Origin: Bacillota bacterium
GTDB taxonomy: Bacteria; Bacillota; Clostridia; Christensenellales; UBA1242
Direction of reading: 5' to 3'
Length of the DNA stretch: 50,002 bases
Assembly (NCBI GenBank): GCA_009784665.1
Contig: WRBH01000001.1
Location: forward strand, 73,267 to 123,268
The notes below the pieces were generated by a model. The model was not told where the DNA came from and made no database searches. It was given only the letters and a program-made list of their open reading frames with translations. Both the position numbers and the translations under genes were made by a program. This document shows positions 1 to 50,002 of this stretch, piece by piece (positions within the stretch are counted from its first letter, which is position 1; each line of letters begins with the position of its first letter).

Positions 1-57
1 TTTTCATAATACAATATAGCACATCGAAAAATCCAAAATCAAGTTTTTGTGTCAGTT

Positions 58-357
58 TTAAAGAGGTAGAGTTTCTTCGCGTAGTTTAGTGACTTGAGTT
101 AGGGCTTCGTTGATAGCGGCGATAACCAAATCTTCCATCATTTCAACATCGTCGGGGTCGACAGCCTCGGGCTTGATTTTAAGGTTTAGTAATTCATATG
201 CCCCGCTCATCTCTACCGAAACCATACCACCGCCAGACGATGCCTCGATTAGAGTTTCTGCCAAGTCTGCCTTGGCTTGCTCTAACTGCTTTTGCATAGC
301 TTGCGCCTGTTTCATCATTTGCTGCATGTTTGCGGTACCTGCACCAGGGAACTTCAT
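58..357 (-). CDS. ybaB: YbaB/EbfC nucleoid-associated protein
   Basis: MQQMMKQAQAMQ...SSGGGMVSVEMSG...DPDDVEMMEDLVIAAINEA signature; GGAGG SD; downstream of dnaX. Confidence 0.95.
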   Translation of the reverse strand: MKFPGAGTANMQQMMKQAQAMQKQLEQAKADLAETLIEASSGGGMVSVEMSGAYELLNLKIKPEAVDPDDVEMMEDLVIAAINEALTQVTKLREETLPL

Positions 358-402
358 AATTAACCTCCTATATCCCTATAAGGGTACCAGAATCGGGCAG
401 TA

Positions 403-431
403 TTGACAAGTCAAAGAATTTGAGGTATAAT
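403..431 (+). promoter_or_regulatory. Consensus sigmaA promoter, leaderless
   Basis: TTGACA(403-408)-17 nt-TATAAT(426-431), ATG 6 nt later at 438. Confidence 0.8.
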
Positions 432-437
432 CCTTTC

Positions 438-740
438 ATGGAAAATATAGAAAATGTTGACGAATACCTCCTTGCCCACGCAGACCAGTTTGCCAGTGTC
501 GGTTTGGACATTAACAGAGCTCTCGAGCTTAATCATCTTATCCAGCACCAGTATATGTTGCACAGAATATCAGGAGAGATGCTTAAGAATAATACGGCTG
601 AGCTCACAACAATGATTGAACAAGCAATGACGCGTGCTGTAACAAAAGACTTCATCCATGAAGACGAAGAATCCGAGAAGCTAAGAGAGTTTGCATTCAA
701 AAACCATCCATTTTTTGAACAAGTCAAATCCTACCTTTAA
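438..740 (+). CDS. Hypothetical acidic helical protein
   Basis: ORF with start reassigned to ATG 438 behind a consensus promoter; no family recognised. Confidence 0.7.
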   Translation: MENIENVDEYLLAHADQFASVGLDINRALELNHLIQHQYMLHRISGEMLKNNTAELTTMIEQAMTRAVTKDFIHEDEESEKLREFAFKNHPFFEQVKSYL

Positions 741-1044
741 CCGATAATTTCTCGCCGAATATTTTGCGTAAATATTCAGTTTTAGGATTTTTTATCGCAT
801 TTTTTTTAGGGGGCTGGATTTCAATTTCAGGGGGGAGTTTTCTTTTGTGTTTTTGTAACATATCATAAGCGGTTTGATCTTTCGCGAACACTAGGATTTG
901 TTCTTTGTCAAAGTATGTATCTACTTGATTAGCAAGCAGGTTGTATAACATATAGTCCTTTTTCTCCCGCAGCCTCTTGGTAAGATTACCATATACCGCG
1001 TGCAGATCAGGAGCCATTGATATTATATCGAACTCTTCTTCCAT
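724..1044 (-). CDS. Probable stand-alone DnaX (tau) C-terminal domain
   Basis: Ends ...EYLRKIFGEKLSVK, like Firmicute DnaX C-termini; lies between the short dnaX and ybaB; AAGGAG SD. Confidence 0.55.
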   Translation of the reverse strand: MEEEFDIISMAPDLHAVYGNLTKRLREKKDYMLYNLLANQVDTYFDKEQILVFAKDQTAYDMLQKHKRKLPPEIEIQPPKKNAIKNPKTEYLRKIFGEKLSVKGRI

Positions 1045-1442
1045 GTCAGCTCCTTTATTTGTTTTCTTAAATTGGCCACAGGCAGAAACAAGTCAGGGGG
1101 AAAATCCCCCCATCTGTGCCACTCCCAACCCTCGCATTTATGGGGCTCTTTGGTTTCAACAACACCACTGTCTAGTTGAGCGGTCAGGGATATCGTAACA
1201 TAATGCCTGCCAATGCTTTCAAAAAGATCATTGGTTACGCCTGCGACCGAAATATTTTTCAGGGTTATGCCTGCCTCCTCCATTGCCTCGCGTTTGGCAC
1301 ATTCCTCAAAATTCTCACCATATTCTAAATGTCCGCCCGGCGGAGCGTATTCACCATCTCCATGAGCATTTTTCCTTTTTCCTAATAAAATCTCGTCCTT
1401 GTCATTAAATATATAAACAGCTATCCCTATTCTTTGTATCAT
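1023..1442 (-). CDS. Nudix hydrolase (NUDT15/MutT-like)
   Basis: Nudix box GGHLEYGENFEECAKREAMEEAG; EPHKCEGWEW; ATG overlaps upstream TAA. Confidence 0.92.
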   Translation of the reverse strand: MIQRIGIAVYIFNDKDEILLGKRKNAHGDGEYAPPGGHLEYGENFEECAKREAMEEAGITLKNISVAGVTNDLFESIGRHYVTISLTAQLDSGVVETKEPHKCEGWEWHRWGDFPPDLFLPVANLRKQIKELTWKKSSI

Positions 1443-1849
1443 TAAACCCTCCACGATACAACGGTGGCTACTGCCCTTGCACTTGTGAAATTTAGGCGGA
1501 CAGAAATTCGGCCTGCCTCGAATTCATCAAGGTCAACCCGCTGTGGCACAAGAAATCCACTTGTTATGTCAAGGGCCTTTCTTGTATCGCCCTGCGTGAT
1601 TACAAGCTCAACTTCACCCTGTGTATTGAAGCTGGATACCATAAACATATCAAGGCCTGCTTGTGTAATATTAAATGTTCGAGTCAGCCTGCCGTTGACA
1701 CTTGCCGCGGTTATTGTCCAAACCCCGTTGCTCTCGTTGTGGTTTAGGTTACTGGAACTGCCGGAAAATGATGTAGTATAACATCCCGTCAATATAAGAA
1801 CGGGAACAGTTAATACCAAAGCAAACGCTGCAAAAAATAATTTTTTCAT
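1442..1849 (-). CDS. Lipoprotein, beta-rich, unknown function
   Basis: MKK + hydrophobic stretch + LTGC lipobox. Confidence 0.8.
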   Translation of the reverse strand: MKKLFFAAFALVLTVPVLILTGCYTTSFSGSSSNLNHNESNGVWTITAASVNGRLTRTFNITQAGLDMFMVSSFNTQGEVELVITQGDTRKALDITSGFLVPQRVDLDEFEAGRISVRLNFTSARAVATVVSWRV

Positions 1850-1852
1850 ATT

Positions 1853-2797
1853 CTATTGTAACGCAAGAATGCATGCTCCGTCAAACATTGATTGCGGGTT
1901 CAGGGCAGTTTTTATTGCCATCTCCAGCTCTGCAAATACTTTATAGGTATCCAATATTTGCTTACTTGGATTCTGGAGAAACCTTGTCTTTATCATCTTC
2001 TGGATATCAACGATCACCGTATTAAGTGTAACAGAGGACGAAGCAATGGTCTTTAATGTCTTGTCCAAAGTTTTTGTATCTCTGGTAAATATAGCGTCAA
2101 GCAGACTCTCAAGCAGCTTGATATCCAACTTGCCTAACACAGCTACCACATCGATCTCGCTTGGATTTTGGGAATATGCAATTACAGCCTCTGCGGTGGA
2201 TAGGGCGTCCCTGACCGAACCGTTTCCCGCCTCAGAGATCAGCCTAATAGCCTCTGGCGTTGCAATAACCCCTTCCTTTTTAAATATGGAAGTCAATTGT
2301 TTGACCAGCAACTCCACCGGCACAGGCCGCACATCAAACCTAAGAACACGAGATAGAATAGTTTTTGGCAACTTGTTCGGTTCAGTTGTAGCCAAAATAA
2401 AGATTACATGAGGCAAAGGCTCCTCTAGGGTTTTTAAGAACGCGTTGAAAGAGCTGTTAGAAAACATGTGAACTTCGTCGATGATATAGACCTTGTATTT
2501 GGAATAAGTTGGTGGATATTTCGTTTTTTCGATTAAATCTCGAACATCTTCGACCCTGTTATTAGACGCAGCATCAATTTCGATTATATCAATACCATCC
2601 GCAAGTGGGTTATCGCCTGTTACCAATCGTGCAAAAATTTTGGCGATACTTGTTTTTCCTGTTCCTCGCGTTCCGCATAATAGATAAGCATGGCTAATCC
2701 CACCAGCTTTGATTTGGTTTTGTAGAGTTCTGACTATATGGTCTTGGCCAATGACTTCTGTAAATTTTTTCGGACGATATTTTCGATAAAGTGACAT
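1853..2797 (-). CDS. dnaX: DNA polymerase III clamp-loader subunit, gamma-length (314 aa)
   Basis: LYRKYRP, GTRGTGKT, IDAASN, IIDEVHM, LKTLEEP motifs; ends after the collar domain. Confidence 0.95.
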   Translation of the reverse strand: MSLYRKYRPKKFTEVIGQDHIVRTLQNQIKAGGISHAYLLCGTRGTGKTSIAKIFARLVTGDNPLADGIDIIEIDAASNNRVEDVRDLIEKTKYPPTYSKYKVYIIDEVHMFSNSSFNAFLKTLEEPLPHVIFILATTEPNKLPKTILSRVLRFDVRPVPVELLVKQLTSIFKKEGVIATPEAIRLISEAGNGSVRDALSTAEAVIAYSQNPSEIDVVAVLGKLDIKLLESLLDAIFTRDTKTLDKTLKTIASSSVTLNTVIVDIQKMIKTRFLQNPSKQILDTYKVFAELEMAIKTALNPQSMFDGACILALQ

Positions 2798-2798
2798 G

Positions 2799-3002
2799 CT
2801 ACCAGTTTACCCTAGTAAACATGATTATGGCAAACAGAACAAAGACAATTGCCGCATCAAACACTGCCCGGCGGGGCAAGGATTTGTAAACCCAGAACGC
2901 AATTACGCAAACTATGAGCACCAGCTTTATTACGAATAGTGCCAATGCCTGCGACAAAATAAAAGCCACGACTAAATATATTCGCGGCTCTTGTTTCGTT
3001 AT
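2799..3002 (-). CDS. Small hydrophobic ORF (67 codons), possible YabQ-like fragment
   Basis: Manual translation ITKQEPRIYLVVAFILSQALALFVIKLVLIVCVIAFWVYKSLPRRAVFDAAIVFVLFAIIMFTRVNW*; fills the gap; first codon ATA, first GTG at codon 12. Confidence 0.4.
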   Translation of the reverse strand: MTKQEPRIYLVVAFILSQALALFVIKLVLIVCVIAFWVYKSLPRRAVFDAAIVFVLFAIIMFTRVNW

Positions 3003-3700: not shown

Positions 3701-4810
3701 TCAATAACCGCCGAAAACGCCCATAAAGTATAATGCGGTGGCAGTTCCAGCAACAACCGCCAAGATGCCCAGAACGACTGCGGCTATTTTTGCACCAGAT
3801 TTTGGGTAACGACCGACAACCTTGCCTGATTCACCATTTATATAAAATTGATATGTTTTGTCCTTGTATCTGTAATTATTTATATAAATCGGCAACATAA
3901 CATAGTTAAATCTCCTGTCAAGATATTGAGTATTAACATGTAACGACCCAACACGATCTGCCCGATATTTGCGAACAATCATGTTGCTAATGTCTCTCCG
4001 TACAAAGTTCGCGAATTCTTGGAAACATTGATCGAGCGTTTTGCTGTAGTGTTCGGCCACAATCCCACTCAGGAATTCTTGGCGATAGACCTTTAGCTGG
4101 GTCATATTAAATGGGCGAATTCTGTTGAAGTTTACCGGTGCGATACGCTCGCCCGCCTGGAAGAGTTGGTCGAGGTATTCTTTATGCATTGTTCCTCTGA
4201 CACGAAACCATCGTGTTTCGGTAACAGTCCGTGTATTTTGCCCCGAACCCACAGTTCTGGTAACAGTCCTCCCTAGAGTACCATTATAGTTGTTTTGTGT
4301 TCTTGAACTGAAGCTCCAAACCGGTGTATAGATTTTTGTAAACTCTTTGGAAACATTTGTCCGCTTTAGAGACCCTGGAGCAAAAAATCGCTTCTTTAAC
4401 CATTGCTTGAAATTCGCCTCTGCCGTTTGTTCAGTAATCCTGAATGGAATCACACTATCGGGCTGTATACCAGGCAGCTCATTAATCTCCCTCACTTGGG
4501 CAGAGCCACAGAAGGCACACTTTCTTGCTATTTCTTTCTTTTCGACGGATTCTTTGGCACCACAGTTTTCACAAGAGAAAACTTTTGCTTCGGTCCACTT
4601 CTTCTGACTTTTCATCATTTCGTCAGTAATTTGACGCCTTTGTACCCGCTCGCCATCTTCTAGATCTCTGGTTGCCCCACAGTGACGACATCGCAATCCT
4701 CCGCTCTCTATATCAAAAAACATTCCCGCACCACAGCCTGGGCACTTGTTTTGGATTGTTGCGACCTCTTGCTCAGTCATTACTTCTTCATGGTGAGTAT
4801 CTTGATTCAT
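3701..4810 (-). CDS. Double zinc-ribbon protein with C-terminal membrane anchor
   Basis: CPGCG/CRHCG and CENCGA/CAFCGS; PDSVIPF, LPIY, INGESGKVVG; C-terminal TM. Confidence 0.8.
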   Translation of the reverse strand: MNQDTHHEEVMTEQEVATIQNKCPGCGAGMFFDIESGGLRCRHCGATRDLEDGERVQRRQITDEMMKSQKKWTEAKVFSCENCGAKESVEKKEIARKCAFCGSAQVREINELPGIQPDSVIPFRITEQTAEANFKQWLKKRFFAPGSLKRTNVSKEFTKIYTPVWSFSSRTQNNYNGTLGRTVTRTVGSGQNTRTVTETRWFRVRGTMHKEYLDQLFQAGERIAPVNFNRIRPFNMTQLKVYRQEFLSGIVAEHYSKTLDQCFQEFANFVRRDISNMIVRKYRADRVGSLHVNTQYLDRRFNYVMLPIYINNYRYKDKTYQFYINGESGKVVGRYPKSGAKIAAVVLGILAVVAGTATALYFMGVFGGY

Positions 4811-4863
4811 ATGTTGATGATAGCACTTGTTGACAATCTTGGCAAACTGTATTACTATCCATT

Positions 4864-5439
4864 ATGGATAATCAGATTAAAATTGTTGTCATAGAGGGCC
4901 CCAGTGGGGCGGGTAAAGATACATTGATACGCCAGCTTATCGAATTGCATCCCGATACTTATGTTAAAATGCCGTCAATAACTGACAGACCAATGAGAAA
5001 AGATGAAACCCAGGGCAACCCTTATTTTCATGTAACTAAAGAGGAGTTTGAGGCAAAAATTAAGTCAGGTGAGGTATTCGAGTACACAGTTTCTTCACGA
5101 GATGGAAGATATCGTGGGATGAACAAAAAGATAATTGATGATATTCTGGCGACAGATAAAATTCAAATTAAGGACTGTGATTGGGTTGGGATAGAAGCAC
5201 TCCGACGGATATATCCAGGAAAGGTATTGGCTATATGCTTGCATGTCCCGAAAGAAGAAATCGCAAAACGATTGTTAGAGCGTGGAGGCGACCCTAAGGA
5301 TATAGAAAACCGCCTGAATGATTACGACGAGTACGCACAAAAGATAGCCAAATACTGTGACATAATCATCGATAATATTAAGCTGTCCGATTGTGCCCGT
5401 TCGATTCACAACATAATTACTTATAACTATATTTCATAA
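4864..5439 (+). CDS. gmk: Guanylate kinase family protein
   Basis: GPSGAGKDT P-loop, TDRPMRKDETQGNPYFHV; TTGACA(4830)-17-TACTAT-5-ATG. Confidence 0.85.
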   Translation: MDNQIKIVVIEGPSGAGKDTLIRQLIELHPDTYVKMPSITDRPMRKDETQGNPYFHVTKEEFEAKIKSGEVFEYTVSSRDGRYRGMNKKIIDDILATDKIQIKDCDWVGIEALRRIYPGKVLAICLHVPKEEIAKRLLERGGDPKDIENRLNDYDEYAQKIAKYCDIIIDNIKLSDCARSIHNIITYNYIS

Positions 5440-10004: not shown

Positions 10005-10496
10005 TTAATCCCCTTTAAACATTTCCTCTCGAGTTTCTGTGTATGCTCGTTCTGCGGTCATGCATTTACTTTTCTTTTTGTATGTATTTTGCATTTCGTG
10101 CTTTGGGGAGCTTATAGCCAGTTTATTAGCCTCACTGTTAAGACGCAGGCCACCTACAAGATAGCGAAGCCTATTAATACCTTCTCCGGCAGTTGCCCCA
10201 CCGCCGAAAATTCCAAAACCTGCAACAATTGCAGGGGCTAGGAATTGCCGAACTGGATCTGGAGCACTCTCGAATAAATTGTATAATATAGGGAATGGGA
10301 TGCTGTCCATCAGTGTGTTTATTATCGGGAAACGAACTTCCTCGGACATCTTCTCCATAGTTGTCAGCATTTCTAAAAGTGCTGTGCCTATTGACGGTAC
10401 TGCCAAAGTTTTCATTGCACGGATTCTGTCACGCAAAGCAACCGCTTGTTTTTCCTCGTACTTTTCCGCCGCAACTTTTTCTTTATTATATTCCAT
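10005..10496 (-). CDS. Hypothetical protein with Gly-rich hydrophobic segment
   Basis: TATAAT 5 nt before ATG; 3 nt from the next gene. Confidence 0.7.
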   Translation of the reverse strand: MEYNKEKVAAEKYEEKQAVALRDRIRAMKTLAVPSIGTALLEMLTTMEKMSEEVRFPIINTLMDSIPFPILYNLFESAPDPVRQFLAPAIVAGFGIFGGGATAGEGINRLRYLVGGLRLNSEANKLAISSPKHEMQNTYKKKSKCMTAERAYTETREEMFKGD

Positions 10497-10502
10497 GAAG
10501 AA

Positions 10503-11876
10503 TTATACAATATTTCTGTTGATAAAGTCAATAAGGTCCGAAATTCTAATGCGCTCCTGCTTCATAGTGTCACGATCTCTTATCGTGACAGAATTATCTT
10601 CAAGGGTTTCGTAATCGACTGTAAGACAAAGCGGTGTCCCAATTTCGTCTTGCCGGCGATATCGTTTCCCGATAGAACCAGTTTCATCATATGAAACAGA
10701 AAAGTTTTTGGATAAAGTATCAAACAGTTCGTGAGATTTATCTGTAAGGCCTCTCTTTTGCAGAGGGAGCACTGCAACAGTATACGGAGCTATGCTTGGC
10801 TTTAGCTTCATAAGAACACGAGTATCGCCCGGAGCAACCTCCTCTTCATTGTATGCATCAACAAGAGTCGCCAATAGTATCCTGTCAAGACCGTGACTGG
10901 ATTCGATTACAGTTGGTACAAACGGGTCTTGGCCTTCTTCTTTGTACTCCATTGTCTTCTTGCTGTCGCGTTGATGGTTTCCTAGGTCAAATATGCCTCG
11001 ATGATGTGTTCCACCTATTTCTCCCCAGCCGAATGGGAACAAGTACTCGGCATCTACGGCCGCTTTGGCATAGTGAGCTAAGTTGTCGTGATCGGCGAAC
11101 CGGATATTCCTGTCGGTTATTCCTAGCCGTTTGGTATAGAACTCGTGAGCTTTTTTTTTGTAGATGTCGTACCATTTCATGCTTTCTTCTTCTTTGCAGA
11201 ATAGTTGGTATTCCATTTGTTCAAATTCAACGGTCCGAAATATAAAGTTTCCTGGTGTTATTTCATTTCTGAAAGCCTTTCCTATTTGTCCTACACCGAA
11301 CGGGACTTTTAAACGAGAACTTCTTTGCAGGTTTTGGAAATTTACGAATTGAGACTGTGCGGTTTCTGGGCGAAGATAGATTGTGTTTAGATTCGCCTCT
11401 GTTACACCACGATCAGTACTAAACATCAATTTAAAGAATCTTATTCCTGTCCAGTTGACTTTCCCGCATGCTGGGCACTTGATCTTATTGTCAAAGACAA
11501 ATTTTTCCATCTCAGGAAGAGATAGTTCCTCTGGACGCTTTTTTGTGTCCTTCCATGTGCCAGATTCCTCGATAAGCTTATCAACACGAGAACGATGCTT
11601 ACAGTCTTTACAATCCATTAAAGGGTCTTGGAAAGTATCGACATGCCCACTAGCCTTCCAAACCATTGGGTTCATTAAAATTCCTCCATCCATACCGATA
11701 GAGTTTCTATTTTCACGAACAAAAAATTTCCACCACTCGCGTTTGATGTTATTTTTCAGTTCGACACCCAAGGGGCCAAAATCCCAAGTATTTGCAAGCC
11801 CACCATATATTTCTGAACCCGGGTATATAAAGCCTCTGTTTTTACTTAACGCTACTATTTTATCTAGATTCTGCAT
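10503..11876 (-). CDS. glyQS: Glycine--tRNA ligase (alpha2 type)
   Basis: YLRPETAQ, GKAFRNEITPGNFIFRTVEFEQME, SIGKRYRRQDEIGTP. Confidence 0.97.
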   Translation of the reverse strand: MQNLDKIVALSKNRGFIYPGSEIYGGLANTWDFGPLGVELKNNIKREWWKFFVRENRNSIGMDGGILMNPMVWKASGHVDTFQDPLMDCKDCKHRSRVDKLIEESGTWKDTKKRPEELSLPEMEKFVFDNKIKCPACGKVNWTGIRFFKLMFSTDRGVTEANLNTIYLRPETAQSQFVNFQNLQRSSRLKVPFGVGQIGKAFRNEITPGNFIFRTVEFEQMEYQLFCKEEESMKWYDIYKKKAHEFYTKRLGITDRNIRFADHDNLAHYAKAAVDAEYLFPFGWGEIGGTHHRGIFDLGNHQRDSKKTMEYKEEGQDPFVPTVIESSHGLDRILLATLVDAYNEEEVAPGDTRVLMKLKPSIAPYTVAVLPLQKRGLTDKSHELFDTLSKNFSVSYDETGSIGKRYRRQDEIGTPLCLTVDYETLEDNSVTIRDRDTMKQERIRISDLIDFINRNIV

Positions 11877-38535: not shown

Positions 38536-39999
38536 ATGTCGCAAAATTTAAAACAAGCCCAACAACCCGTTAATCGTACTATGCCTCACAGCTTGGAGGC
38601 CGAGCAAGGAATCTTAGGTTGTGTTATTGTGGATAATGAAGGGACGCTGGATGCGTTTTCCAAACTGTCGGTCGAGGATTTTTATTCGCCGTCGCACAAG
38701 ACAATATATACCGCCATGCGGGAAATCTATGATAATGGCAGTCCAATAGATTTTGTGACACTTGTTGCAAAATTAGATGGGGCGGGAAAATTAGATGGAG
38801 TCGGTGGGATTTCGTATATAACAAATATAGTCGATATTGTTCCATCCAGTGCAAATTTTAGATATTATTTAGCAATTTTAGAAGAAAAACGAACAAGACG
38901 GAAATTAATTAATGCGGCAGGCCAAATTATTGAGACCAGCCATGTCGAACCTTCGGCACAAGCCGCCTTACAAATCGCGGAAAAGGAAATCTTTAATATT
39001 TCAAAAGACGACGATCGTAAAGAGCTGAGTCATATTAAATCTGTATTGCCCGAGGTTATCAACAAGTTAGATATCATACACCGCGACCCGATGGCGATTC
39101 GTGGATTGAAGACAGGTTTTTTTGGACTTGACAATATTACTAATGGATTACAAAGGAGTGATCTTATTATTCTTGCCGCTCGTCCATCCGTTGGAAAAAC
39201 GGCATTAGGTCTGAACATGTGCATGAATGCCGCATTAAAATACGGGGCGAAGGTAGCGGTGTTCAGTCTTGAAATGAGTAAAGAGCAAATGACAACCAGA
39301 GTGGTCTGCTCTGTTGCCAAGGTGTCCTTGTCCAGAGCGATGAAAGGAAATTTGGAAGCCGAGGAATGGAAGCGAATCTGGGAGGCCAATGCCCTACTGG
39401 CACAGGCCAACATTCATTTTGATGATAACTCGATGATTACTCCTGCGGAAATATTGCGAAAATGTATGAAGATTAAACGAGAATCGGGTTTGGATTTGGT
39501 TATGATTGACTATCTTGGACTAATGTCAAGTGCGAATAGTCGTCGCGAAAGTCGCCAGGTAGAGGTTGCGGATAACAGCCGTATGATGAAGATTATGGCA
39601 AAGGAGTTAGATATCCCTGTATTGCTCTTATCCCAATTGAACCGTGGGATCGAGGCAAGGCAAGGGGTCGAGGGCAAACCTCGCCTTAGTGACCTGAGAG
39701 AGTCGGGGGCAATAGAGCAGGACGCCGATATTGTAATGTTCATCCATAAAGAAAAAAATGACGAAACCGGTCGTGCGAATGATAATCATGAAGCCGAACT
39801 TTTAATCGAAAAGCACAGGAATGGTCCGTTAGGCAGCGTAAAACTTTCCTGGGTTGGCGATTGGACATCCTTTGTTAACCAGACTGGCGAACAAAAGGCC
39901 CAAGAGGTTCGTGACAAGCCAATTGCGGAACCTAAGCCGAAGCCTGCACCGAAAAAGAAATCGGATAAACCAAAAGAAGAGGGCGAAGAAGTCTTCTAG
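38536..39999 (+). CDS. dnaB: Replicative DNA helicase
   Basis: PHSLEAEQ, AARPSVGKT, LSQLNR, SDLRESGAIEQDAD, KHRNGP. Confidence 0.98.
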   Translation: MSQNLKQAQQPVNRTMPHSLEAEQGILGCVIVDNEGTLDAFSKLSVEDFYSPSHKTIYTAMREIYDNGSPIDFVTLVAKLDGAGKLDGVGGISYITNIVDIVPSSANFRYYLAILEEKRTRRKLINAAGQIIETSHVEPSAQAALQIAEKEIFNISKDDDRKELSHIKSVLPEVINKLDIIHRDPMAIRGLKTGFFGLDNITNGLQRSDLIILAARPSVGKTALGLNMCMNAALKYGAKVAVFSLEMSKEQMTTRVVCSVAKVSLSRAMKGNLEAEEWKRIWEANALLAQANIHFDDNSMITPAEILRKCMKIKRESGLDLVMIDYLGLMSSANSRRESRQVEVADNSRMMKIMAKELDIPVLLLSQLNRGIEARQGVEGKPRLSDLRESGAIEQDADIVMFIHKEKNDETGRANDNHEAELLIEKHRNGPLGSVKLSWVGDWTSFVNQTGEQKAQEVRDKPIAEPKPKPAPKKKSDKPKEEGEEVF

Positions 40000-40388: not shown

Positions 40389-42005
40389 TTATTTCACCGC
40401 CTCCAGCAAGCCGATGAACAGAGGATGTGCCTTGTATGGTTTGGACAGGAGTTCTGGGTGAAACTGTGACGCTATGAAGAATGGGTGGTCGGAAAGTTCG
40501 ATAATTTCAACAAGATTTGATTCGGGGTTGATACCACTAAAGACCATGCCGTGATTCTCCAATTGCTGCTTATAGTCACAGTTGAATTCATAACGATGCC
40601 TGTGCCGTTCCGAGATTTGATTTTTACCGTACAGGTTACGGGCAAGGGTTCCCTCTTTCAAATCGCATTTGTACAGACCCAATCGCATGGTACCGCCTAG
40701 CTCGCAGATGTTTTCTTGGGACGCCATCAGGTCAATAATTGGATGAGGGGTGTCGGGGTTCATCTCGGTAGAGTTTGCCCCCGCCAAACCCACAACATTT
40801 CGAGCAAATTCAATAACCGCCATTTGCATACCCAAACATATGCCCAGTAATGGGATTTCGTTTTCCCTTGCATGTCTTAAGGTTGTGATCTTACCCTCTA
40901 TGCCTCGACCGCCGAATCCTCCTGGAATTACGATACCATCGACTCCGTCCAGCAGCTCTACTCCGACACTCTCGATATCTTCAGCACTCACTAGTTTAAT
41001 TTCAACGCGGGTATCAGTTGCCAGCGATGCCGCCCGTATGGCTTCCATAACACTTAGGTCTGCATCAGGCACGGCAACATACTTGCCAACAATGGCAATA
41101 GTTTTTGCCTGTCTTCCGTTTTTGTATTGCATTTTTTTGACCATTGCTTTCCATTCGGCCAAGTTATCTTTTGCGGCTTTTAATCCCAGCTTCTTTAGTA
41201 TAATGTCGTCAACCTTTTGGTTTTTCAGTAATACGGGGACTTCATAAATAGTGCTACAGTTTGGATTGTGGATGACTTCGTTGGTGCTGTCAAGATTACA
41301 GAACATTGCCAGCTTCTCTTTTGTTTCCTCGTCCAATTCAATCCCTGCGGAAGTTCTGCAGACAATCAAATCGGGATAAACACCAAGTCTGTTCAGATCC
41401 TTGACACTGTTTTGGGTAGGTTTTGTTTTAATCTCGCCATTAGTTGCCAGTACGGGTACAAGCGTGACATGAATTGAGACACTTCCCTTAGGGCCCAGTT
41501 CACGCTTGAATTGACGGACTGCTTCCATTGGGGTCATGCCTTCAATTTCGCCTACCGTTCCGCCTATTTCAACTATCACAATGTCGGAATCCTTAGCGGC
41601 CTTTCGGAACATAGACTTGATTTCGTCTGTTACATGCGGAACGACTTGGACATCGCGGCCCAGGAAGTCACCTTTTCTTTCCTTGGCTATGACATGGGAA
41701 TAAATCTTGCCCATGGTGAAGCTGTTGTCACTGCCCAGGTGTCGGCCTATGAACCTTTCATAGTGTCCGATATCCAGATCGGTTTCCGTTCCATCGTCGG
41801 TGACAAAAACCTCACCATGCCTGAATGGGTTCATTGTTCCTGGATCAACATTTAGGTATGGGTCCAGTTTTTGGACGCTGACGCGTAATCCTCTGTTAAT
41901 CAAAAGACGCCCAATGGACGCCGCAGTTATTCCCTTGCCCAAACCACTTACCACCCCGCCCGTTACAAAAATGTATTTGGGGAGGGGACTTGCATTTTTC
42001 GACAT
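40389..42005 (-). CDS. pyrG: CTP synthase
   Basis: TGGVVSGLGKG, KTKPTQ, GICLGMQ, RHRHRYE, QFHPE. Confidence 0.98.
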   Translation of the reverse strand: MSKNASPLPKYIFVTGGVVSGLGKGITAASIGRLLINRGLRVSVQKLDPYLNVDPGTMNPFRHGEVFVTDDGTETDLDIGHYERFIGRHLGSDNSFTMGKIYSHVIAKERKGDFLGRDVQVVPHVTDEIKSMFRKAAKDSDIVIVEIGGTVGEIEGMTPMEAVRQFKRELGPKGSVSIHVTLVPVLATNGEIKTKPTQNSVKDLNRLGVYPDLIVCRTSAGIELDEETKEKLAMFCNLDSTNEVIHNPNCSTIYEVPVLLKNQKVDDIILKKLGLKAAKDNLAEWKAMVKKMQYKNGRQAKTIAIVGKYVAVPDADLSVMEAIRAASLATDTRVEIKLVSAEDIESVGVELLDGVDGIVIPGGFGGRGIEGKITTLRHARENEIPLLGICLGMQMAVIEFARNVVGLAGANSTEMNPDTPHPIIDLMASQENICELGGTMRLGLYKCDLKEGTLARNLYGKNQISERHRHRYEFNCDYKQQLENHGMVFSGINPESNLVEIIELSDHPFFIASQFHPELLSKPYKAHPLFIGLLEAVK

Positions 42006-42026
42006 GACTATGTTATACTATATATT

Positions 42027-42704
42027 ATGGGAATAGTCAACGCAATAAATTGGTTCGCGGGTCATGCTTGGCCTTGGGTTTTGTGCCTTGTAATACTCTG
42101 GTTTTTTCTGTGGCTGATAATTCAGATTTGCAGATGCTGTAAAAAAGGCAAATGTTGTAAATGTTGCAAGTGCGACAAAGTAAAATCTGCTCCGAAGCAG
42201 AAGGAGAAACCAAAGCCAGTCGCAAAGAATGAGGTAATGCCCTTGCGTGCCGAGGCATCAAAGCCAGAGCAAATGAATAAACCTGAGTATATGAAAGAAA
42301 CTTATTCTAAAAAACTGGCTCCGCGTAAACCAAGGTTGTCGCCTACGCCAAAGGCAAAGCCAATCGTGGCGACAAAGACACCAGAGGTTTTAAGTACCAT
42401 TCCTGTCGAGGCAACAAAAACCACAACAATGACCGTCAGCAGGACAGACAGCTCTGGGACGGTAAGTGAAACCCAAACAAAGCGAGAGGTTATAACGGGC
42501 GAGATGAAGACCTCGTCAGGTGTTGGATACTATTCCGACCCAACGAAATATGAAAGAACGGGTGCAAAAGTTGTAACAACCCGCACCACAACAACAAAAG
42601 GCCAGTTCGACGAGAACGAGGTTCAAAATGCCCTGCTTGGATTGAAATCAGCAATGGACGAACAAAAGCAAATGGACCATAAATTTAGTAGTGGAAACGA
42701 TTAA
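42027..42704 (+). CDS. Single-pass membrane protein with Cys string and low-complexity tail
   Basis: TM followed by CRCCKKGKCCKCCKC, then K/P/T-rich region. Confidence 0.75.
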   Translation: MGIVNAINWFAGHAWPWVLCLVILWFFLWLIIQICRCCKKGKCCKCCKCDKVKSAPKQKEKPKPVAKNEVMPLRAEASKPEQMNKPEYMKETYSKKLAPRKPRLSPTPKAKPIVATKTPEVLSTIPVEATKTTTMTVSRTDSSGTVSETQTKREVITGEMKTSSGVGYYSDPTKYERTGAKVVTTRTTTTKGQFDENEVQNALLGLKSAMDEQKQMDHKFSSGND

Positions 42705-42722
42705 ATCCAAGTATCATATTAT

Positions 42723-44048
42723 ATGAAGCTTTTTAACACCCTGACGCGGAAGAAAGAGTATTTCAGGCCAATGGATGGCGAAATCGTCAAGATTTACAGT
42801 TGCGGGCCAACGGTCTACAGCTCCCCCACCATAGGCAACCTGCGTGCGTATATTTTCACTGATATTTTGAAAAAGAGCCTGCGTCATATCGGAGGATTTG
42901 AAATTTACGATGTTATTAATATAACGGATGTTGGGCATCTGCAATCCGACGCCGACGAGGGCGAAGATAAAATCGACGAGGCGGCACGCAAGAAAAAGAT
43001 AACCCCTGCCGATATAGCAAAACAATACACGGACGAGTTTATCAGGGACACTATCTTACTTAATATTGATGTACCCCAGATATGGGCTCCTGCCACTGAC
43101 TATGTGAAGGAAATGGTGCAGCATGTGCGACAGTTGGAGGAGAGAGGCTTTACCTATATAACAAGTGATGGGGTCTATTATGATTCATCCAAATTCGCGG
43201 ACTATTATAAATTAAGGGGTGGTAAGAGCGACGATCGTGTCGGTTCACGGGTTGATTTTGGCGAGAAACGCAACAAGAATGATTTTTGTCTATGGCGATT
43301 TGCAAAGCCAACAGCTTTGCAAAAATTTGACAGCCCCTGGGGGGCCGGAACACCGGGCTGGCATATCGAATGTTCCGCGATAGCCAGGAAATATCTTGGC
43401 GATCAGTTTGATATCCACACAGGGGGTGTTGACCATATCCCAATTCATCATACAAACGAGCGTGCACAAACCCAAGCCCTCACAAAAAAAGAGATGGCGA
43501 GATTCTGGATGCATAATGAATTTATTAAAATCAATGGTACCAAAATGTCCAAGTCTTTGGGCAACGCTTATACCCTGACAAATTTGACAGACAGGGGCTA
43601 TTCTCCCCTGCACTTTCGATATCTATGTTTGATGACACATTATAGGACAATAATGAATTTCACTTGGGAGTCTTTGGATTCGGCGAAAAAATCTTACGAG
43701 AATCTCGTCAGGCAGATAAAGAAAAATAAGGTCCCCGTTGATGCAGATGAATTCAGCTCTGCCCTTGTTGATGACTTGAACACGGCCAAGGCTATGGCGG
43801 CGTTATGGAAGGCTACGCCCGAACAGGCTCTTGAATTTGATAAGGTTTTATCCCTTGGCTTGAAAGAGGCACTAGAGGAAAAATTTATGGAAATCCCCGA
43901 AAATGTTGCTGAACTTGTGCAAATTCGTGCGGAATGCAAGAAAAATCGTGAGTTTCAAAAATCTGACCAAATCCGTGACGAGATAAAAGCTCTGGGTTAT
44001 GAGGTTCTTGATACATCCAACGGACCAATCATCCAACCCATAAGATAA
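42723..44048 (+). CDS. cysS: Cysteine--tRNA ligase
   Basis: YSCGPTVY, NITDVGH, PGWHIECS, HHTNE, KMSKSLGN. Confidence 0.97.
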   Translation: MKLFNTLTRKKEYFRPMDGEIVKIYSCGPTVYSSPTIGNLRAYIFTDILKKSLRHIGGFEIYDVINITDVGHLQSDADEGEDKIDEAARKKKITPADIAKQYTDEFIRDTILLNIDVPQIWAPATDYVKEMVQHVRQLEERGFTYITSDGVYYDSSKFADYYKLRGGKSDDRVGSRVDFGEKRNKNDFCLWRFAKPTALQKFDSPWGAGTPGWHIECSAIARKYLGDQFDIHTGGVDHIPIHHTNERAQTQALTKKEMARFWMHNEFIKINGTKMSKSLGNAYTLTNLTDRGYSPLHFRYLCLMTHYRTIMNFTWESLDSAKKSYENLVRQIKKNKVPVDADEFSSALVDDLNTAKAMAALWKATPEQALEFDKVLSLGLKEALEEKFMEIPENVAELVQIRAECKKNREFQKSDQIRDEIKALGYEVLDTSNGPIIQPIR

Positions 44049-44121: not shown

Positions 44122-44191
44122 TGTCTTGACCCATTTCTTTGCCCGGAACACTCCAAGGCCAGGACTCCTCAAGAAATGGACACTCAGGATA
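44122..44191 (+). ncRNA. Candidate 70-nt structured RNA
   Basis: Nested stems TGTCTTGA/TCAGGATA and CCATTTCTT/AAGAAATGG; TATACT 5 nt upstream. Confidence 0.35.
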
Positions 44192-44211
44192 AAGTATGCT
44201 AGAATCAACTG

Positions 44212-45138
44212 ATGATACAAAAAAGCATTCTAGATTTGATAGGAAATACCCCAGTGGTAGAGTTGACCCGTCTTGCAAAAAAGCACAGCCTTAATGGTCG
44301 AGTTTTCGCAAAGTTGGAGTTCATGTCGCCAGGCTTCTCTAAAAAGGATAGGATAGCAAAATTTATAATTGAACAGGCCGAGGCTAGCGGCAATCTCAAG
44401 CCAGGTATGACAGTTATTGAGGCAACCAGTGGAAACACAGGGATATCTCTTGCCTTAACCTGTGCGATAAAAGGTTATCCATTTATCGCAGTGATGAGTG
44501 AAGGTAATACCCCCGAGCGCAGGTTTATGATCGAACAATTCGGCGGACGCGTCGAGTTGGTTTCTCAACATCCTGACTCCCCTCCTGGTAAAGTAACTGG
44601 CAAGGATCTGGGTCTTGTCAAGGAAAGGTTCGAGGAGTTGGCATCCGAACTCAATGCATTCAAGGTCGGTCAATTTACATCCGAACTTAACCCTCTTGCT
44701 CACTATACACATACCGCTAAGGAAATTGTCCAGGCCGTTCCCCAATTGGATGCGTTTTGTGATTTTATCGGAACAGGTGGAAGTTTCGAGGGTATAGCCA
44801 AATATTTAAAGGAGCAAAATTCCGATATAAAATGCTTCATCGTAGAGCCCACCAAGGAAACTCATATTATACAAGGGGGTGGATATTTCAAGAAGGTTCC
44901 ATTCGAGCGAGTAGAAAATTGCGACGGAAGAATAGGTATAACTTGCGAGCAAACCTTGCTCTGGCAAAAAGAAATTTTGACCGTCGAAGGAATCGCCGCA
45001 GGGATTTCCAGTGGTTCAAACATGGCTGCTGCCGTTCATTATCTAAAGGAGAATCCAGGCAAATCTGTCCTAGTCCTAATAAATGATACTGTTTTGAATT
45101 ATGTGTCATTTTATGCAAGGGGTGGCCATGCACATTAA
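44212..45138 (+). CDS. cysK: Cysteine synthase family PLP enzyme
   Basis: IGNTPVV, KLEFMSPGFSKKDR, EATSGNTG, GTGGS, GISSG; exact substrate uncertain. Confidence 0.85.
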   Translation: MIQKSILDLIGNTPVVELTRLAKKHSLNGRVFAKLEFMSPGFSKKDRIAKFIIEQAEASGNLKPGMTVIEATSGNTGISLALTCAIKGYPFIAVMSEGNTPERRFMIEQFGGRVELVSQHPDSPPGKVTGKDLGLVKERFEELASELNAFKVGQFTSELNPLAHYTHTAKEIVQAVPQLDAFCDFIGTGGSFEGIAKYLKEQNSDIKCFIVEPTKETHIIQGGGYFKKVPFERVENCDGRIGITCEQTLLWQKEILTVEGIAAGISSGSNMAAAVHYLKENPGKSVLVLINDTVLNYVSFYARGGHAH

Positions 45139-46192: not shown

Positions 46193-46661
46193 GGACCAGC
46201 TGATAAAACCAGCTGGCGATTACGCTTTCATCAAATAACCATTCAGGGATTCTTGCCAATGGGGGGATGTTCGCCGCCAAGCTAATTATCGCCGCCAGGG
46301 ATGCAAAGTACAGGGTGAATCGGAATAATCCAAGGAGGAGGCCAAGAATCATGTCCAGCCAGTTCAACACTCGACTCCTCTCTTTAAGTTTCGCGACAAA
46401 TCGCATCAGCAAGAATATGGCCAATCTAATTATGATGAAGATGACAATGGCGGTTATAATAATGACGACAGCCAGGCCATGATTCTCGACCCAGTCGAAC
46501 CAAGAATCAAACAAAAGGGCAAGCGGCCACGCCAATAAAACCGAGATGATTATTGATAAGAAAACTGTCACAAGCGAAAGGACGCCCCTCAGGAAGCCCT
46601 TAAACAGGCCATGAAGCACGAAAGCTATTAAAAGCAGAATGAATATTACATCTGTGAGCAC
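46173..46661 (-). CDS. CvpA family membrane protein
   Basis: GLFKGFLR, LDMILGLLLG; TTGACA-17-TATACT-6-GTG. Confidence 0.8.
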   Translation of the reverse strand: MLTDVIFILLLIAFVLHGLFKGFLRGVLSLVTVFLSIIISVLLAWPLALLFDSWFDWVENHGLAVVIIITAIVIFIIIRLAIFLLMRFVAKLKERSRVLNWLDMILGLLLGLFRFTLYFASLAAIISLAANIPPLARIPEWLFDESVIASWFYQLVLRLLPF

Positions 46662-46717
46662 TCTAAGAGTATACCCATTAAGGACACTGATGTCAAACTA
46701 TTCTGTCTAAGAAAAAA

Positions 46718-46771: not shown

Positions 46772-46773
46772 TT

Positions 46774-47724: not shown

Positions 47725-47750
47725 TCTGCCTCCTCTTAGTATGGTGTTAT

Positions 47751-47766
47751 TGTTCCACATGGAACA
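47751..47766. promoter_or_regulatory. parS site 3
   Basis: TGTTCCACATGGAACA. Confidence 0.9.
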
Positions 47767-47786
47767 GGGTGGTGTCAAGCGAAAAG

Positions 47787-47802
47787 TGTTCCATGTGGAA
47801 CA
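47787..47802. promoter_or_regulatory. parS site 4
   Basis: TGTTCCATGTGGAACA. Confidence 0.9.
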
Positions 47803-47887
47803 CGGTACCCTCTATAATTATTATAGAGAGTGCGATGAGTGCGTTCCTCTTGCATTTTAGATGGAGGTGTGATATGATGGTTGAATT

Positions 47888-48661
47888 ATGAGTGCAAAGA
47901 TAGTTGCGTTTACGAACCAGAAAGGCGGCGTAGGTAAGACTACGACCTGCGTTAACCTTAGTGCGTTTCTTGTAGAGATGGGCAAGCGGGTTCTTATTGT
48001 TGATATAGACCCTCAAGGAAATGCTACAAGTGGTATAGGGTTCGAGAAATCTCGTGATACCAAGACCATTTACGATGTAATGTGCGACAATGTGGATGTC
48101 AGCGAGGTTGTCCAATTGAGCCCAATCCGAAACCTGGAGATTATCCCTGCAACGGTGGACTTGGCAGGTGCGGAAGTGGAGCTTGTTCGTATGCCGGGGC
48201 GAGAGAGGCTGCTTAAAGACCATCTAGAGAAGGTGCGGGGAAGTTATGATTACATTATGATCGATTGTCCTCCATCTCTGGGGCTATTGACGCTTAATGC
48301 ACTGACGGCAGCGGATGCATTAGTGATACCGATTCAGTGTGAGTTCTTTGCATTGGAAGGGGTGTCTCAGTTAATAAATACAGTTCGTCTTATAAGGAAG
48401 CAGGGGTTAAACCCGAAGCTAGACATTGATGGAGTCTTGCTGACAATGTATGATAAGAGATCTAGTTTGACAGATCAGGTGTCCAGCGAAATTCTAAAGT
48501 TTTTCGGCAAAAAAGTTTTCAACATAAAGGTCCCAAGAAATGTCCGATTGGCGGAGGCTCCATCGCATGGCAAGCCAATAACCTTATACGATCCAAAATG
48601 TGCAGGTGCCGTAGCCTATGGGCAATTGGCAAAAGAATTCCTGGCTAGGCAACCTAAGTAA
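47888..48661 (+). CDS. parA: ParA/Soj ATPase
   Basis: NQKGGVGKTTT, DIDPQGN, DCPPSLG, PRNVRLAEAPSHG. Confidence 0.98.
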   Translation: MSAKIVAFTNQKGGVGKTTTCVNLSAFLVEMGKRVLIVDIDPQGNATSGIGFEKSRDTKTIYDVMCDNVDVSEVVQLSPIRNLEIIPATVDLAGAEVELVRMPGRERLLKDHLEKVRGSYDYIMIDCPPSLGLLTLNALTAADALVIPIQCEFFALEGVSQLINTVRLIRKQGLNPKLDIDGVLLTMYDKRSSLTDQVSSEILKFFGKKVFNIKVPRNVRLAEAPSHGKPITLYDPKCAGAVAYGQLAKEFLARQPK

Positions 48662-48680
48662 AATCTGTTAAACTGGGTTT

Positions 48681-50002
48681 GTGTCTGTGCAGTTAATTGA
48701 CGAGGTTGTTGATATCACATTTCGTAATGACGAAAATGGGTATTCTGTTTTGCGGTTAAAGCAGAGTGGTACGGCTACTGGGGTTTTTGCCTTCGTATCA
48801 GTAGGGCAAGAGTTGAATATGGCAGGCGAGTGGGTGAATAATCCAAAATTTGGCAAGCAGTTCAAGGTGAGCAGTTATGGGGTAATGGTCCCAAATACTC
48901 CTGCCAAGATCAAGCAGTTTATTGGTAGTGGCTTGATAAAGGGTATCGGTCCTGTGACGGCGGATAGAGTTGTGGCGATGTTCGGGAAAGAGACCTTGCG
49001 GATAATGGATGAGGATCCGATGAAACTGAGCAGGGTTAAAGGTATCAGTCGTGACAAAGCAAAAGATATCGGCGAGCGATATGCCCTAGTCAAGGCAATG
49101 CAAGATAGTATAATTTTTCTGAGTCGTTTCAGTATCTCCATAAATATGGCGGTAAAAATATTCAAGAGGTTTGGTGAGCAAACTATCGAGATAGTTTCAG
49201 CGAACCCTTATATATTAATAGAGAAAATTTCAGGAATTGGATTCCTGACCGCTGACAAGATGGCCATGGATTTGGGTGTTGCGTATAATGGTAATTTCAG
49301 GGTTAGGGCAGGGTTGGTACATATTCTAAAGCAGGAGTCAGAGGTCGATGGGCATACATTTTTACCGAGATTGAACTTGCTGCTTGAGGCGTGTAAGTTA
49401 TTGAAAATCAAGCAGCCTGACCTAGAGCCAGTCTTTGAGGATGTAGTGTCCGAACTGTGTTTAGATAAATTACTGACCTTGGTTCGCAGGGAGGGCGAGG
49501 CTGGATTTATGTTGACCCGATTTTTTAATGACGAGCGGGTAATTGCGGGCAAGTTGGTAACCCTTGCAGGGCATGTCGACCAAAGTGATGATGGCGAGTT
49601 GGGTAGGACGATCAAGCATTACGAAGAGATTAATAAAATTAAATTGCATGATATGCAGCGAGATGCCGTAAAGATGGCGACGAGGCATGGTGTCTGCGTT
49701 ATAACAGGAGGGCCAGGGACGGGGAAAACCACCATAGTTAAGGCTATTTTATATATATCCGAGGCTCAGGGGCGGAAGGCAATGTTGCTTAGTCCCACTG
49801 GTCGTGCGGCGAAAAGGCTGGAGGATACGACTGGTCGACCTGCATCAACGATTCACCGTGCATTAATGGCGGGTAGTGGTGGTGAATGGTCTGAAGAGCA
49901 GGGTGGTAAGCTGGAGGCCGACCTCATTATTGTTGATGAGGTTTCCATGTGTGATGCGTCGTTGACGGCAGCGCTTTTGCGAAGCTTGTCGCCTCGGACT
50001 GC
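48681..50002 (+). CDS. recD2: RecD2 helicase (partial, runs off the window)
   Basis: Manual translation: FRNDENGYSV, KFGKQF, GSGLIKGIGP, ITGGPGTGKTT, PTGRAAKRL, IVDEVSM. Confidence 0.95.
   Translation, partial: MSVQLIDEVVDITFRNDENGYSVLRLKQSGTATGVFAFVSVGQELNMAGEWVNNPKFGKQFKVSSYGVMVPNTPAKIKQFIGSGLIKGIGPVTADRVVAMFGKETLRIMDEDPMKLSRVKGISRDKAKDIGERYALVKAMQDSIIFLSRFSISINMAVKIFKRFGEQTIEIVSANPYILIEKISGIGFLTADKMAMDLGVAYNGNFRVRAGLVHILKQESEVDGHTFLPRLNLLLEACKLLKIKQPDLEPVFEDVVSELCLDKLLTLVRREGEAGFMLTRFFNDERVIAGKLVTLAGHVDQSDDGELGRTIKHYEEINKIKLHDMQRDAVKMATRHGVCVITGGPGTGKTTIVKAILYISEAQGRKAMLLSPTGRAAKRLEDTTGRPASTIHRALMAGSGGEWSEEQGGKLEADLIIVDEVSMCDASLTAALLRSLSPRT

Follow-up and report, generated by a model that had tools for sequence, protein, structure and literature searches.

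The window analysed here, the whole stretch of 50,002 nucleotides (nt), is positions 73267-123268 of contig C1 in genome G000 (G000:C1:73267-123268). It holds many genes, termed promoter-led below, in which a sigma-A-type -10 box lies directly before the start codon in the place usually taken by a Shine-Dalgarno (SD) sequence, so that the mRNA is predicted to be leaderless. In what follows, G-numbers denote genomes, g-numbers genera and L-numbers loci. The G000 assembly comprises 1.095 Mb in 53 contigs, with 44% G+C, and is 77% complete. We infer that it belongs to Christensenellales, the order and family names being assigned on the same footing; the nearest named EF-G and IF3 records are labelled 'Firmicutes', 'Clostridia' or 'Christensenellaceae bacterium', and the DnaB relatives are Clostridia. 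The closest DnaB relative found (54%), locus L001, is titled 'uncultured Prevotella sp.' and appears to be clostridial, probably a mislabelled record. Genomes in the family measure about 1 Mb; it spans at least 58 genera, and the order at least 42 families.

Promoter-led starts in the window

Genes were called with a self-trained gene caller (954 genes in G000, coding density 0.82) and sorted by a three-class mixture model (promoter-led, SD-led, unassigned), which picks start and motif jointly, includes start-codon use as a fitted term and leaves position -1 unscored. Among the 53 genes called in the window, 29 are promoter-led (24 at posterior ≥ 0.8), 22 are SD-led and 2 are neither; the open reading frame (ORF) 46661 and recD2 are two more promoter-led genes that the caller missed (Table 1).

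The initial annotation had named 21 TAnnnT hexamers lying 5-7 nt before start codons, and all 21 are in place at the spacing given. Its remark that several of them also have TTGACA at 17 nt is an understatement: about 89% of the class have a -35 box, which is therefore the norm, and the pattern extends over the whole genome. In the named cases a TTGnnn-like -35 box stands 16-18 nt further upstream in 17 of 21, the exceptions being uppP, 38470, cysS and recD2. No SD lies between promoter and start in 19 of the 21; at 438 and glyQS the upstream GAGG sits before or just after the -10 box, hence outside the predicted transcript. The pyrG and ORF 42027 starts are only 21 nt apart, so each -35 box falls inside the opposite gene.

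Gene names were checked by NCBIfam. The names ybaB, dnaX, gmk, glyQS, degV, radC, rplA, rplK, uppP, dnaN, dnaB, cysS, cysK-like, parB and recD2 all found a match, while the ORF called 'ART' (window 37748-38470, start 38470) has none at 1e-15. DnaX (window 1853-2797) is only 314 aa long, and its match covers the N-terminal clamp-loader part alone.

The dnaA promoter contains, across its -10 region, a perfect DnaA box (34648-34656 (+), in reverse orientation) that ends 8 nt short of the ATG at 34665, which suggests autorepression at a leaderless start. The dnaA -10 box is imperfect (TAACTA), and dnaA is therefore an uncertain member of the class.

Table 1. Features discussed in the text. Coordinates are window positions unless a contig is given; hexamers and spacers run from the -35 box to the start codon.
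Feature	Coordinates (strand)	Description
ORF 438 (100 aa)	403..440 (+)	TTGACA-17-TATAAT-6-ATG, promoter-led start
ORF 1849	1847..1884 (-)	TTGACG-18-TACAAT-5-ATG; both boxes within dnaX last codons, gap 3 nt
dnaX	2795..2833 (-)	TTGCCA-18-TAAACT-6-ATG
ORF 4810 / gmk	4808..4866 (minus / plus)	TATCAT-6 / TACTAT-5; overlapping back-to-back promoters, 53-nt gap, each -35 at 17 nt
ORF 10496	10494..10531 (-)	TTGACT-18-TATAAT-5-ATG; boxes overlap glyQS end
glyQS	11874..11913 (-)	TTGCGT-18-TAGAAT-7-ATG; start 11876, versus longest-ORF start 11885
degV	13610..13647 (-)	TTGACG-17-TAGACT-6-ATG
fusA (counter-example)	18199..18244 (-)	TTGACT-13/17-TATAAT, then ~14-nt leader, little besides SD (AAGGAGG)
radC	21025..21061 (+)	TTGCAT-17-TATCAT-5-ATG
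ORF 21818	21783..21820 (+)	TTGCGA-17-TATACT-6-ATG; boxes within radC end
ORF 24906	24904..24941 (-)	TTGTCA-17-TACGAT-6-ATG
ORF 27202	27200..27236 (-)	TTGACA-17-TATGAT-5-ATG
uppP / ORF 28525	28467..28527	Divergent, 55-nt gap; uppP TATGAT-5, no clear -35, posterior 0.65; ORF 28525 TACAAT-5
ORF 37726	37724..37762 (-)	TTGCAA-18-TATACT-6-ATG
ORF 38470 / dnaB	38468..38538	Divergent, 65-nt gap; TAGAAT-5 / TTGCAA-17-TATCAT-6
pyrG / ORF 42027	42003..42029 (minus / plus)	Divergent promoter-led starts; pyrG start 42005
cysS	42712..42725 (+)	TATCAT-5-ATG; no clear -35, posterior 0.79
cysK-like	44177..44214 (+)	TGGACA-17-TAGAAT-6-ATG
ORF 46661	46659..46696 (-)	TTGACA-17-TATACT-6-GTG
recD2	48669..48683 (+)	TAAACT-6-GTG; no clear -35
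Convergent overlap or abutment sites	724-740, 5439-5440, 8901-8904, 16120-16123, 36026-36029, 39996-39999	
infC (IF3)	G000:C41:2023-2574	Outside window
16S 3' fragment	End of G000:C20 (L330); helix 44 3' strand 19615-19638 (-)	Outside window; pattern search, 230 nt

The promoter-led class across the genome

When applied to the 954 genes, the model assigns 491 as promoter-led, 417 as SD-led and 46 as unassigned. At posterior > 0.8 the counts are 442 (46%; model prior 50%), 379 and 3, so that SD-led genes are common too. The motifs learned are TGnTAtAaT, TTGaca at 17-18 nt and AGGAGG. In the promoter-led class the two boxes are 17-18 nt apart in 95%, and the -10 box ends 5-8 nt before the start, with a spacer of 5-6 nt in 82% and of 7-8 nt in about 15%. 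Three separate parts of the genome are 50-58% promoter-led. It appears, with a probability of about 0.85, that in roughly half of the G000 genes a sigma-A-type promoter abuts the start codon and yields a leaderless mRNA, while the other genes keep the SD. Both the statistics of the sequence and features independent of them support the leaderless architecture in a Firmicute that the initial annotation had proposed.

RNA polymerase would start on the A of AUG, with 5-6 bases between the -10 box and this A, and ribosomes would bind the resulting mRNAs at the start codon on their 5' end. By analogy with work on E. coli, mycobacteria and Deinococcus, initiation may be of the 70S type (PMC9031893, PMC4611024).

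The mixture model picks starts and motif together, and might in this way produce an artefact from A+T-rich intergenic DNA or wrong start choice. This explanation has next to no probability and is refuted by a series of controls. When the 50 nt upstream were shuffled, every set gave 0 confident promoter-led calls. With the first ATG taken blindly as the start (910 genes, 50 dinucleotide shuffles), TAnnnT at 5-7 nt occurs in 293 genes versus 72 ± 8 (maximum 101), and so withstands the comparison with shuffles which the initial annotation had named as a possible refutation; TAnnnT plus a TTG -35 box occurs in 212 versus 4.8 ± 1.9. By single spacers, TAnnnT is found at 5 and 6 nt in 13.1% and 16.2% of these genes, at most other spacers in about 2-4% (5-6% at 0 and 11), and at internal ATGs in 0.9%; TTGnCn peaks 28-30 nt before the motif-blind starts. 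The strict promoter followed by ATG at a spacer of 5-6 nt has 159 matches, 138 of them opening frames of at least 60 codons, versus 3-20 at each of the other spacers from 2 to 13. Moreover, relatives richer in A+T reach only 3-7%, and the N-termini of orthologues agree: they lie within 6 residues of each other in 58 of 71 pairs that are promoter-led in G000 and SD-led in the relative, as compared with 79 of 91 SD/SD pairs. (The thresholds for an orthologue pair were 35% identity, 70% cover and, in each of the two genomes, posterior 0.8.)

Transcription starts generally follow the Y-1/R+1 rule. A pyrimidine is present at position -1 in 347 of 442 promoter-led genes (79%) versus 180 of 379 SD-led genes (47%; p = 2.5e-20), and at spacers 5, 6 and 7 the excess (82%, 81% and 81%) is restricted to that position. 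The promoter-led starts are 401 ATG, 38 GTG and 3 TTG, as compared with 26 TTG in the 379 SD-led genes; start-codon use being a fitted term, this avoidance of TTG is only partly independent evidence. The core genes dnaB, dnaX, pyrG, cysS and glyQS are in the class, as are, judged by eye, rplM, rplU, rpsT, rpmE and smpB.

The TAnnnT motif could instead be a translation signal, that is, a non-SD ribosome-binding site of the GeneMarkS-2 group B type on leadered or polycistronic mRNA. Read-through from upstream is conceivable for the 247 co-directional genes of the class, 82 of which are at most 20 nt from the upstream stop, and terminators are predicted at few stops (12 of 150). However, the motif comes together with an extended TG and, at 17-18 nt, a -35 box. 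Divergent heads are enriched in it, 222 of 322 (69%) being promoter-led, versus 82 of 286 genes lying at most 20 nt from a co-directional neighbour; these tightly coupled internal genes use the SD in 191 cases. The translation-signal explanation is accordingly given very little weight.

A different matter is whether the promoters, though real, give very short leaders, with transcription beginning at mixed positions or 1-4 nt upstream of the AUG. The spacers of 7-8 nt, together with those of 8-9 nt at IF1 and parA, are compatible with such leaders, as is the weak calibration described below; against them stand the 5-6 nt past the -10 box, which provide no space for a longer leader, and the confinement of the pyrimidine excess to -1. 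We regard very short leaders as unlikely.

Several observations count against the leaderless reading or against its extent. The strict, model-free excess (212 or 221 of 910) amounts to only about 23-24% of the genes, half of the model figure, and 104 of the 203 strongest promoter-like sites have no called start 5-8 nt downstream; given the coding density, some genes are missed by the caller. The calibration of start distance, in 72 SD-led genes with an upstream promoter, is weak: a pyrimidine-purine step occurs at offsets 6-7 in 36%, but offsets 5-6 reach only 19% and offsets 1-2 are at comparable levels, so that the 5-nt spacer class is without independent calibration. The share of promoter-led genes has a strict floor of 23%, and about half is the best estimate.

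The initial annotation had further supposed that leaderless genes allow very short gaps and the shuffling of operons. The former holds in part. In 107 of the 217 confident co-directional promoter-led genes the gap is below 35 nt and the -35 box is inside the upstream coding sequence, which even the -10 box touches in 36; however, the median gap is 36 nt for promoter-led versus 10 nt for SD-led co-directional genes. The latter is not specific to leaderless-rich genomes. The co-directional fraction is equal inside and outside the clade described below (p = 0.76, 11 versus 6 genomes), being as low in G005 (0.63; 6% leaderless) and G008 (0.65; 3% leaderless). The fragmentation of gene order, equally high in these low-leaderless relatives, is therefore more likely an earlier or separate event. 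Within the clade, co-directional neighbours become fewer as the leaderless share rises (rho -0.77 in 11 genomes which, as kin, are not independent), as is expected whichever way causation runs.

As for gene order in the window, fusA (16120-18244) is solitary with its own promoter, rpsL-rpsG being on another contig (C20). The origin region (32535-36029, 44212-48661) is rearranged: dnaA and dnaN are divergent, as are parA and parB; downstream of dnaN come a small ORF, rpmH, an rnpA-like gene and yidC; and recF follows a cysK-like gene.

Untranslated RNA appears to have been lost at both gene ends as a common theme, with short SD leaders and overlapping convergent stops. In SD-led first genes, of which 74 of 184 have a strong promoter, the median leader is about 19 nt. 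At the 3' ends, 56% of 162 convergent pairs overlap or abut at their stops, 30 of them at exactly -4, and convergent gaps of at most 10 nt make up 30-67% of pairs in clade samples versus 0-25% outside (small n). Terminator-like hairpins lie near only the 12 of 150 stops mentioned above. Their scarcity was rejected as a clade trait (8-23% in the clade as compared with 13-55% outside it, one genome of the order having 5%), and so was the loss of Rho as a partner trait: Rho was not found in the 77% complete G000 genome, nor in any of five g1 genomes or G006, but it is also unfound or degenerate in many outside genera, with a match in 10 of 24 family genomes.

Relatives, initiation factor IF3 and 16S helix 44

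The strict promoter-plus-ATG pattern corresponds to 145 matches per Mb in G000, with 12 matches in a reversed control. Among 250 family genomes the next counts are 113 (G078), 63 (G002), 59 (G006) and 58 (G001), the rest having 7-52. Judged by eye, no genome outside the family exceeds about 33 per Mb among 200 genomes of the order, or 27 per Mb among 240 of the class.

Shares in relatives were estimated with the fixed model on samples of 100-200 kb (63-208 genes each), so that errors of several points apply. In an EF-G tree, made by a quick search, genera g1, g3, g16 and g66 join as one clade (SH-aLRT support, the approximate likelihood ratio test, 99). Within it the share is graded from 19 to 52%: G019 49%, G001 48%, G006 43%, G078 42%, G002 33%, G164 29%, G478 25%, G003 22%, G069 20% and G004 19%. 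The six family genomes taken as the outside group have 19% (G014), 14% (G013), 7% (G016), 6% (G005), 5% (G011) and 3% (G008); four order genomes have 0-4%, and a pool of 12 Oscillospiraceae-type loci has 0%. Shares above 30% occur in 6 of the sampled genomes, all of the clade.

The direction of change may be seen from orthologues. Pairs leaderless in G000 and SD-led in the relative number 77, versus 10 of the reverse; against outside-clade relatives, 41 are leaderless only in G000, 1 shows the reverse and 3 are leaderless in both. The degV orthologues in G002 and G003, for example, are SD-led, with N-termini at most 1 residue apart. From the 41 versus 1 pairs it follows that the leaderless state is derived from SD-led ancestors; the abutting promoter replaced the ancestral SD gene by gene in one clade of the family.

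The genomes predicted to be rich in leaderless genes thus form one clade, and in the sequences compared a double insertion in IF3, together with base-pair swaps in helix 44 of 16S rRNA, is found in that clade alone. Both marks are directly visible in seven genomes (G000, G001, G002, G006, G019, G187, G263); infC of G078 and several clade 16S genes are unassembled.

The IF3 of the clade keeps the N-terminal and C-terminal domain families (PF05198/PF00707), the fold and the gene order infC-rpmI-rplT. While the RGR and GR motifs are kept, a single residue is inserted immediately ahead of RGR and five more at the tip of the GR hairpin and around it; a further change is Asp to Glu in the helix 3 motif. 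Both insertions are present in all 7 clade members of a 29-genome alignment and in 9 IF3s of g66, and in none of the 22 others; partial likeness is seen in G008 (a one-residue insertion near the first site) and G022 (a different one near the second). A domain search with the G000 IF3 in 400 family genomes (1e-22) gave 21 matches, all from the four clade genera, and among database clusters the best 85 share the clade form where the region is visible while the next 35 do not. Aligned to Thermus thermophilus IF3, the motifs correspond to Arg123-Gly124-Arg125 and Arg159 (numbering by count), which in cryo-electron microscopy structures lie against or beside the anticodon loop of the initiator tRNA, the start codon and the +4 base (PMC5037330). 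The predicted structure keeps the fold, with longer hairpin strands at 151-162 and 166-175 (mean model confidence, pLDDT, 74); the predicted C-terminal domain superposes on 1TIG with a template-modelling (TM) score of 0.89 and a root-mean-square deviation of 1.6. The IF3 stem branch is 0.49, as compared with 0.16 for bL20, 0.09 for bL35 and 0.12 for EF-G, taxon sets and methods differing among these.

An AUU-type start codon of infC serves the autoregulation of IF3. In G000 infC has an apparent TTG start after a strong SD, and in G001, G004 and G006 an ATG; as a clade mark this switch was rejected, AUU being kept in G002, G003, G019 and 9 g66 genomes. IF1 (L396, G000:C4:45345-45551) has a 5-residue insertion in genus g1 only (4 of 21 genomes with a match), which likewise excludes it as a clade mark. 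IF1 reads LYKNNI in 8 of 9 clade genomes versus LRMNYI in most others (outside the clade, G009 and G014 are similar), and uS11 ends in K in 9 of 9 clade genomes and 0 of 11 outside.

An Rfam search of G000 gave no 16S match, and the 230-nt 3' fragment at a contig end came from a pattern search. Positions in helix 44 are given in E. coli numbering. The 16S 3' motif was found in 128 of 401 family genomes; nine, all of the clade, read G1495 with A1488 and U1491 (G000, G001, G002, G006, G078, G019, G187, G247, G263), and the other 119 keep U1495. In four clade genomes both strands are available and read C1406-G1495, A1409-U1491 and U1412-A1488, three compensatory base-pair swaps relative to U1406.U1495, C1409-G1491 and C1412-G1488 in 26 outside family loci. 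The clade keeps A1408, A1492, A1493, G1494 and the anti-SD tail. A1410G was rejected as a clade mark, since 23 of the 26 outside loci have G1410. Among 280 other order genomes no non-U1495 16S was found, apart from one chance match inside a coding sequence, the holders of a 16S 3' end being uncounted. Of 46 metagenome loci with G1495, 29 show every pair of the clade, 10 are missing the partner strand, and 7 are of other lineages with part of the set (L339, L347, L345, L349, L369, L352, L360; 65-82% identity, one archaeal). In two of these 7, L339 and L347, C1406-G1495 and A1409-U1491 are as in the clade. To our knowledge, the clade pairs are otherwise known only as engineered mutants. Beyond the 16S 3' end of G000 a terminator-like hairpin and a new promoter follow within about 190 nt, with no tRNA or 23S seen, which suggests that its rRNA genes are unlinked.

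The SD machinery is intact in G000, which has the anti-SD in the 16S fragment, bS21, and three S1 domains in a frame of 371 aa; a cause in the loss of any of anti-SD, bS21 and bS1 was thus discarded. A change in helix 69 (H69) of 23S rRNA was also discarded, H69 being identical in 3 clade and 2 outside genomes (10 searched), and helix 24 (h24) of 16S is unchanged.

IF3 is reported to oppose leaderless initiation on the 30S subunit, with a dual, concentration-dependent effect (PMC9031893, PMC4611024). It may tentatively be proposed that in the clade (g1, g3, g16, g66) translation initiation became adapted to leaderless mRNA, IF3 and helix 44 having a causal role, a proposal that we hold to be rather doubtful as it stands. 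The lengthened start-codon-sensing hairpin and the RGR loop of IF3, together with a rewritten docking site for IF3 and IF1 on helix 44, would relieve the normal block by IF3 on 5'-terminal AUGs; promoters could then replace SD leaders gene by gene, in up to half of the genome. Slightly better than even is the chance that the changes are unrelated to leaderless mRNA and share only an ancestor with it, having arisen by drift in a reduced genome, by mutual compensation of IF3 and its site, or under selection by an aminoglycoside-type drug; this is compatible with the leaderless reading itself.

The single origin on the EF-G tree is one data point and weighs against the causal link, which for that reason counts as a lead; no leaderless-rich outlier that could serve as an independent origin was found among the 200 order or 240 class genomes. 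The low end of the clade (G004, G069, G003) overlaps the high end outside it (G014, G013), and by raw pattern counts g66, with 17-37 per genome, is not set apart from genera outside, which have up to 52. Thermus, of a leaderless-rich phylum, has an IF3 with the standard short hairpin; other clade-wide changes are present (uS11 and uS13 tails, IF1 residues); and G1495 recurs in the 7 unrelated loci. G1491U alone is a paromomycin-resistance change in laboratory mutants, but U1406C/U1495G has almost no effect on the minimal inhibitory concentration of the drugs (PMC3140962). Against a coincidence, the changes hit precisely the parts in contact with the start codon and with one another, namely Arg123-Gly124 and the Arg159 hairpin of IF3, and, in helix 44, 1494-1497, which the C-terminal domain of IF3 contacts in one position, and 1407-1408/1485-1487, contacted in the other (PMC5037330). 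The length of the IF3 stem branch, the unchanged H69, h24 and anti-SD, and the clade ancestry of 6 of 6 genomes above 30% point the same way.

Significance and comparison with known systems

Efficient leaderless translation in some bacteria, although the IF3 of E. coli opposes it, is an open question. The known leaderless-rich phyla are too old to reveal an origin, which here lies inside one family, and the SD-led orthologues in close kin, the graded series of shares and the transplantable IF3 and helix 44 changes make the question testable in vitro. If the causal proposal were true, the clade would offer a naturally occurring transition to leaderless translation from an SD-led state, one that can be dated and has its trans-acting cause identified. 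The clade also provides natural variation at a nearly invariant decoding-site pair, a drug target, and gene callers based on the SD may misplace starts in its genomes.

According to PMC3160421, leaderless genes average 4.2% in Firmicutes, with a maximum of 16.6%, and make up 35.9-46.1% in Deinococcus-Thermus (its Table 2). In PMC6028130, GeneMarkS-2 assigned 36 of 1064 Firmicutes to group C; of the 370 Clostridia, 366 fell into group A (Table S4). Our literature search found no paper combining 'Christensenellales' and 'leaderless', none on leaderless-dominated Clostridia, and no report of a natural C1406-G1495 variant or of such an IF3, most subscription papers being beyond its reach.

The architecture predicted for G000 belongs to a class already described, group C; among Clostridia it is an extreme case, and a derived one. 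Group C has a -10 box about 10 nt before the start at more than 25% of first genes, and here 69% of divergent heads are promoter-led by our own model, not GeneMarkS-2; the other genes of group C are SD-led with a matching 16S tail, and here AGGAGG marks the 379 confident SD-led genes and the anti-SD is intact. Group B would have the same non-SD motif at internal genes and no -35 box, whereas in G000 the internal genes are mostly SD-led (191 of 286) and the -35 box is general.

As in the group C or TA-led genes of Actinobacteria and Deinococcus-Thermus, a Pribnow box abuts the first genes, the SD is used elsewhere, and starts are AUG or GUG; the same promoter layout is experimentally leaderless in Deinococcus (PMC12340547, PMC4007540). 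The share in G000, 46-51% as predicted from sequence, is at or above the Deinococcus-Thermus range. G000 differs from these systems in that the host is of Clostridia, the spacer is 5-6 nt rather than 6-7 or 6-8, and a consensus -35 box is the rule. Its state, derived from SD-led ancestors, also contradicts the view in PMC3160421 of leaderless genes as merely declining ancestral remnants. With the leaderless genes of Lactococcus, Streptococcus, Leuconostoc and Mycoplasma it shares a Firmicute sigma-A promoter with an extended TG abutting the start (PMC3160421), but the share in G000 is three times or more as high and includes core genes. The IF3 of the clade resembles those of T. thermophilus (5LMN), Geobacillus stearothermophilus (1TIG) and E. 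coli in domains, fold, RGR and GR motifs and gene order, and differs from them in the insertions before RGR and around the GR hairpin, and in the TTG or ATG start in G000, G001, G004 and G006. The decoding site departs from the bacterial standard in C1406-G1495, A1409-U1491 and U1412-A1488. What is new in comparison with all of these is that leaderless-rich genomes, as predicted here, make up one clade in which the remodelling of IF3 and helix 44 co-occurs.

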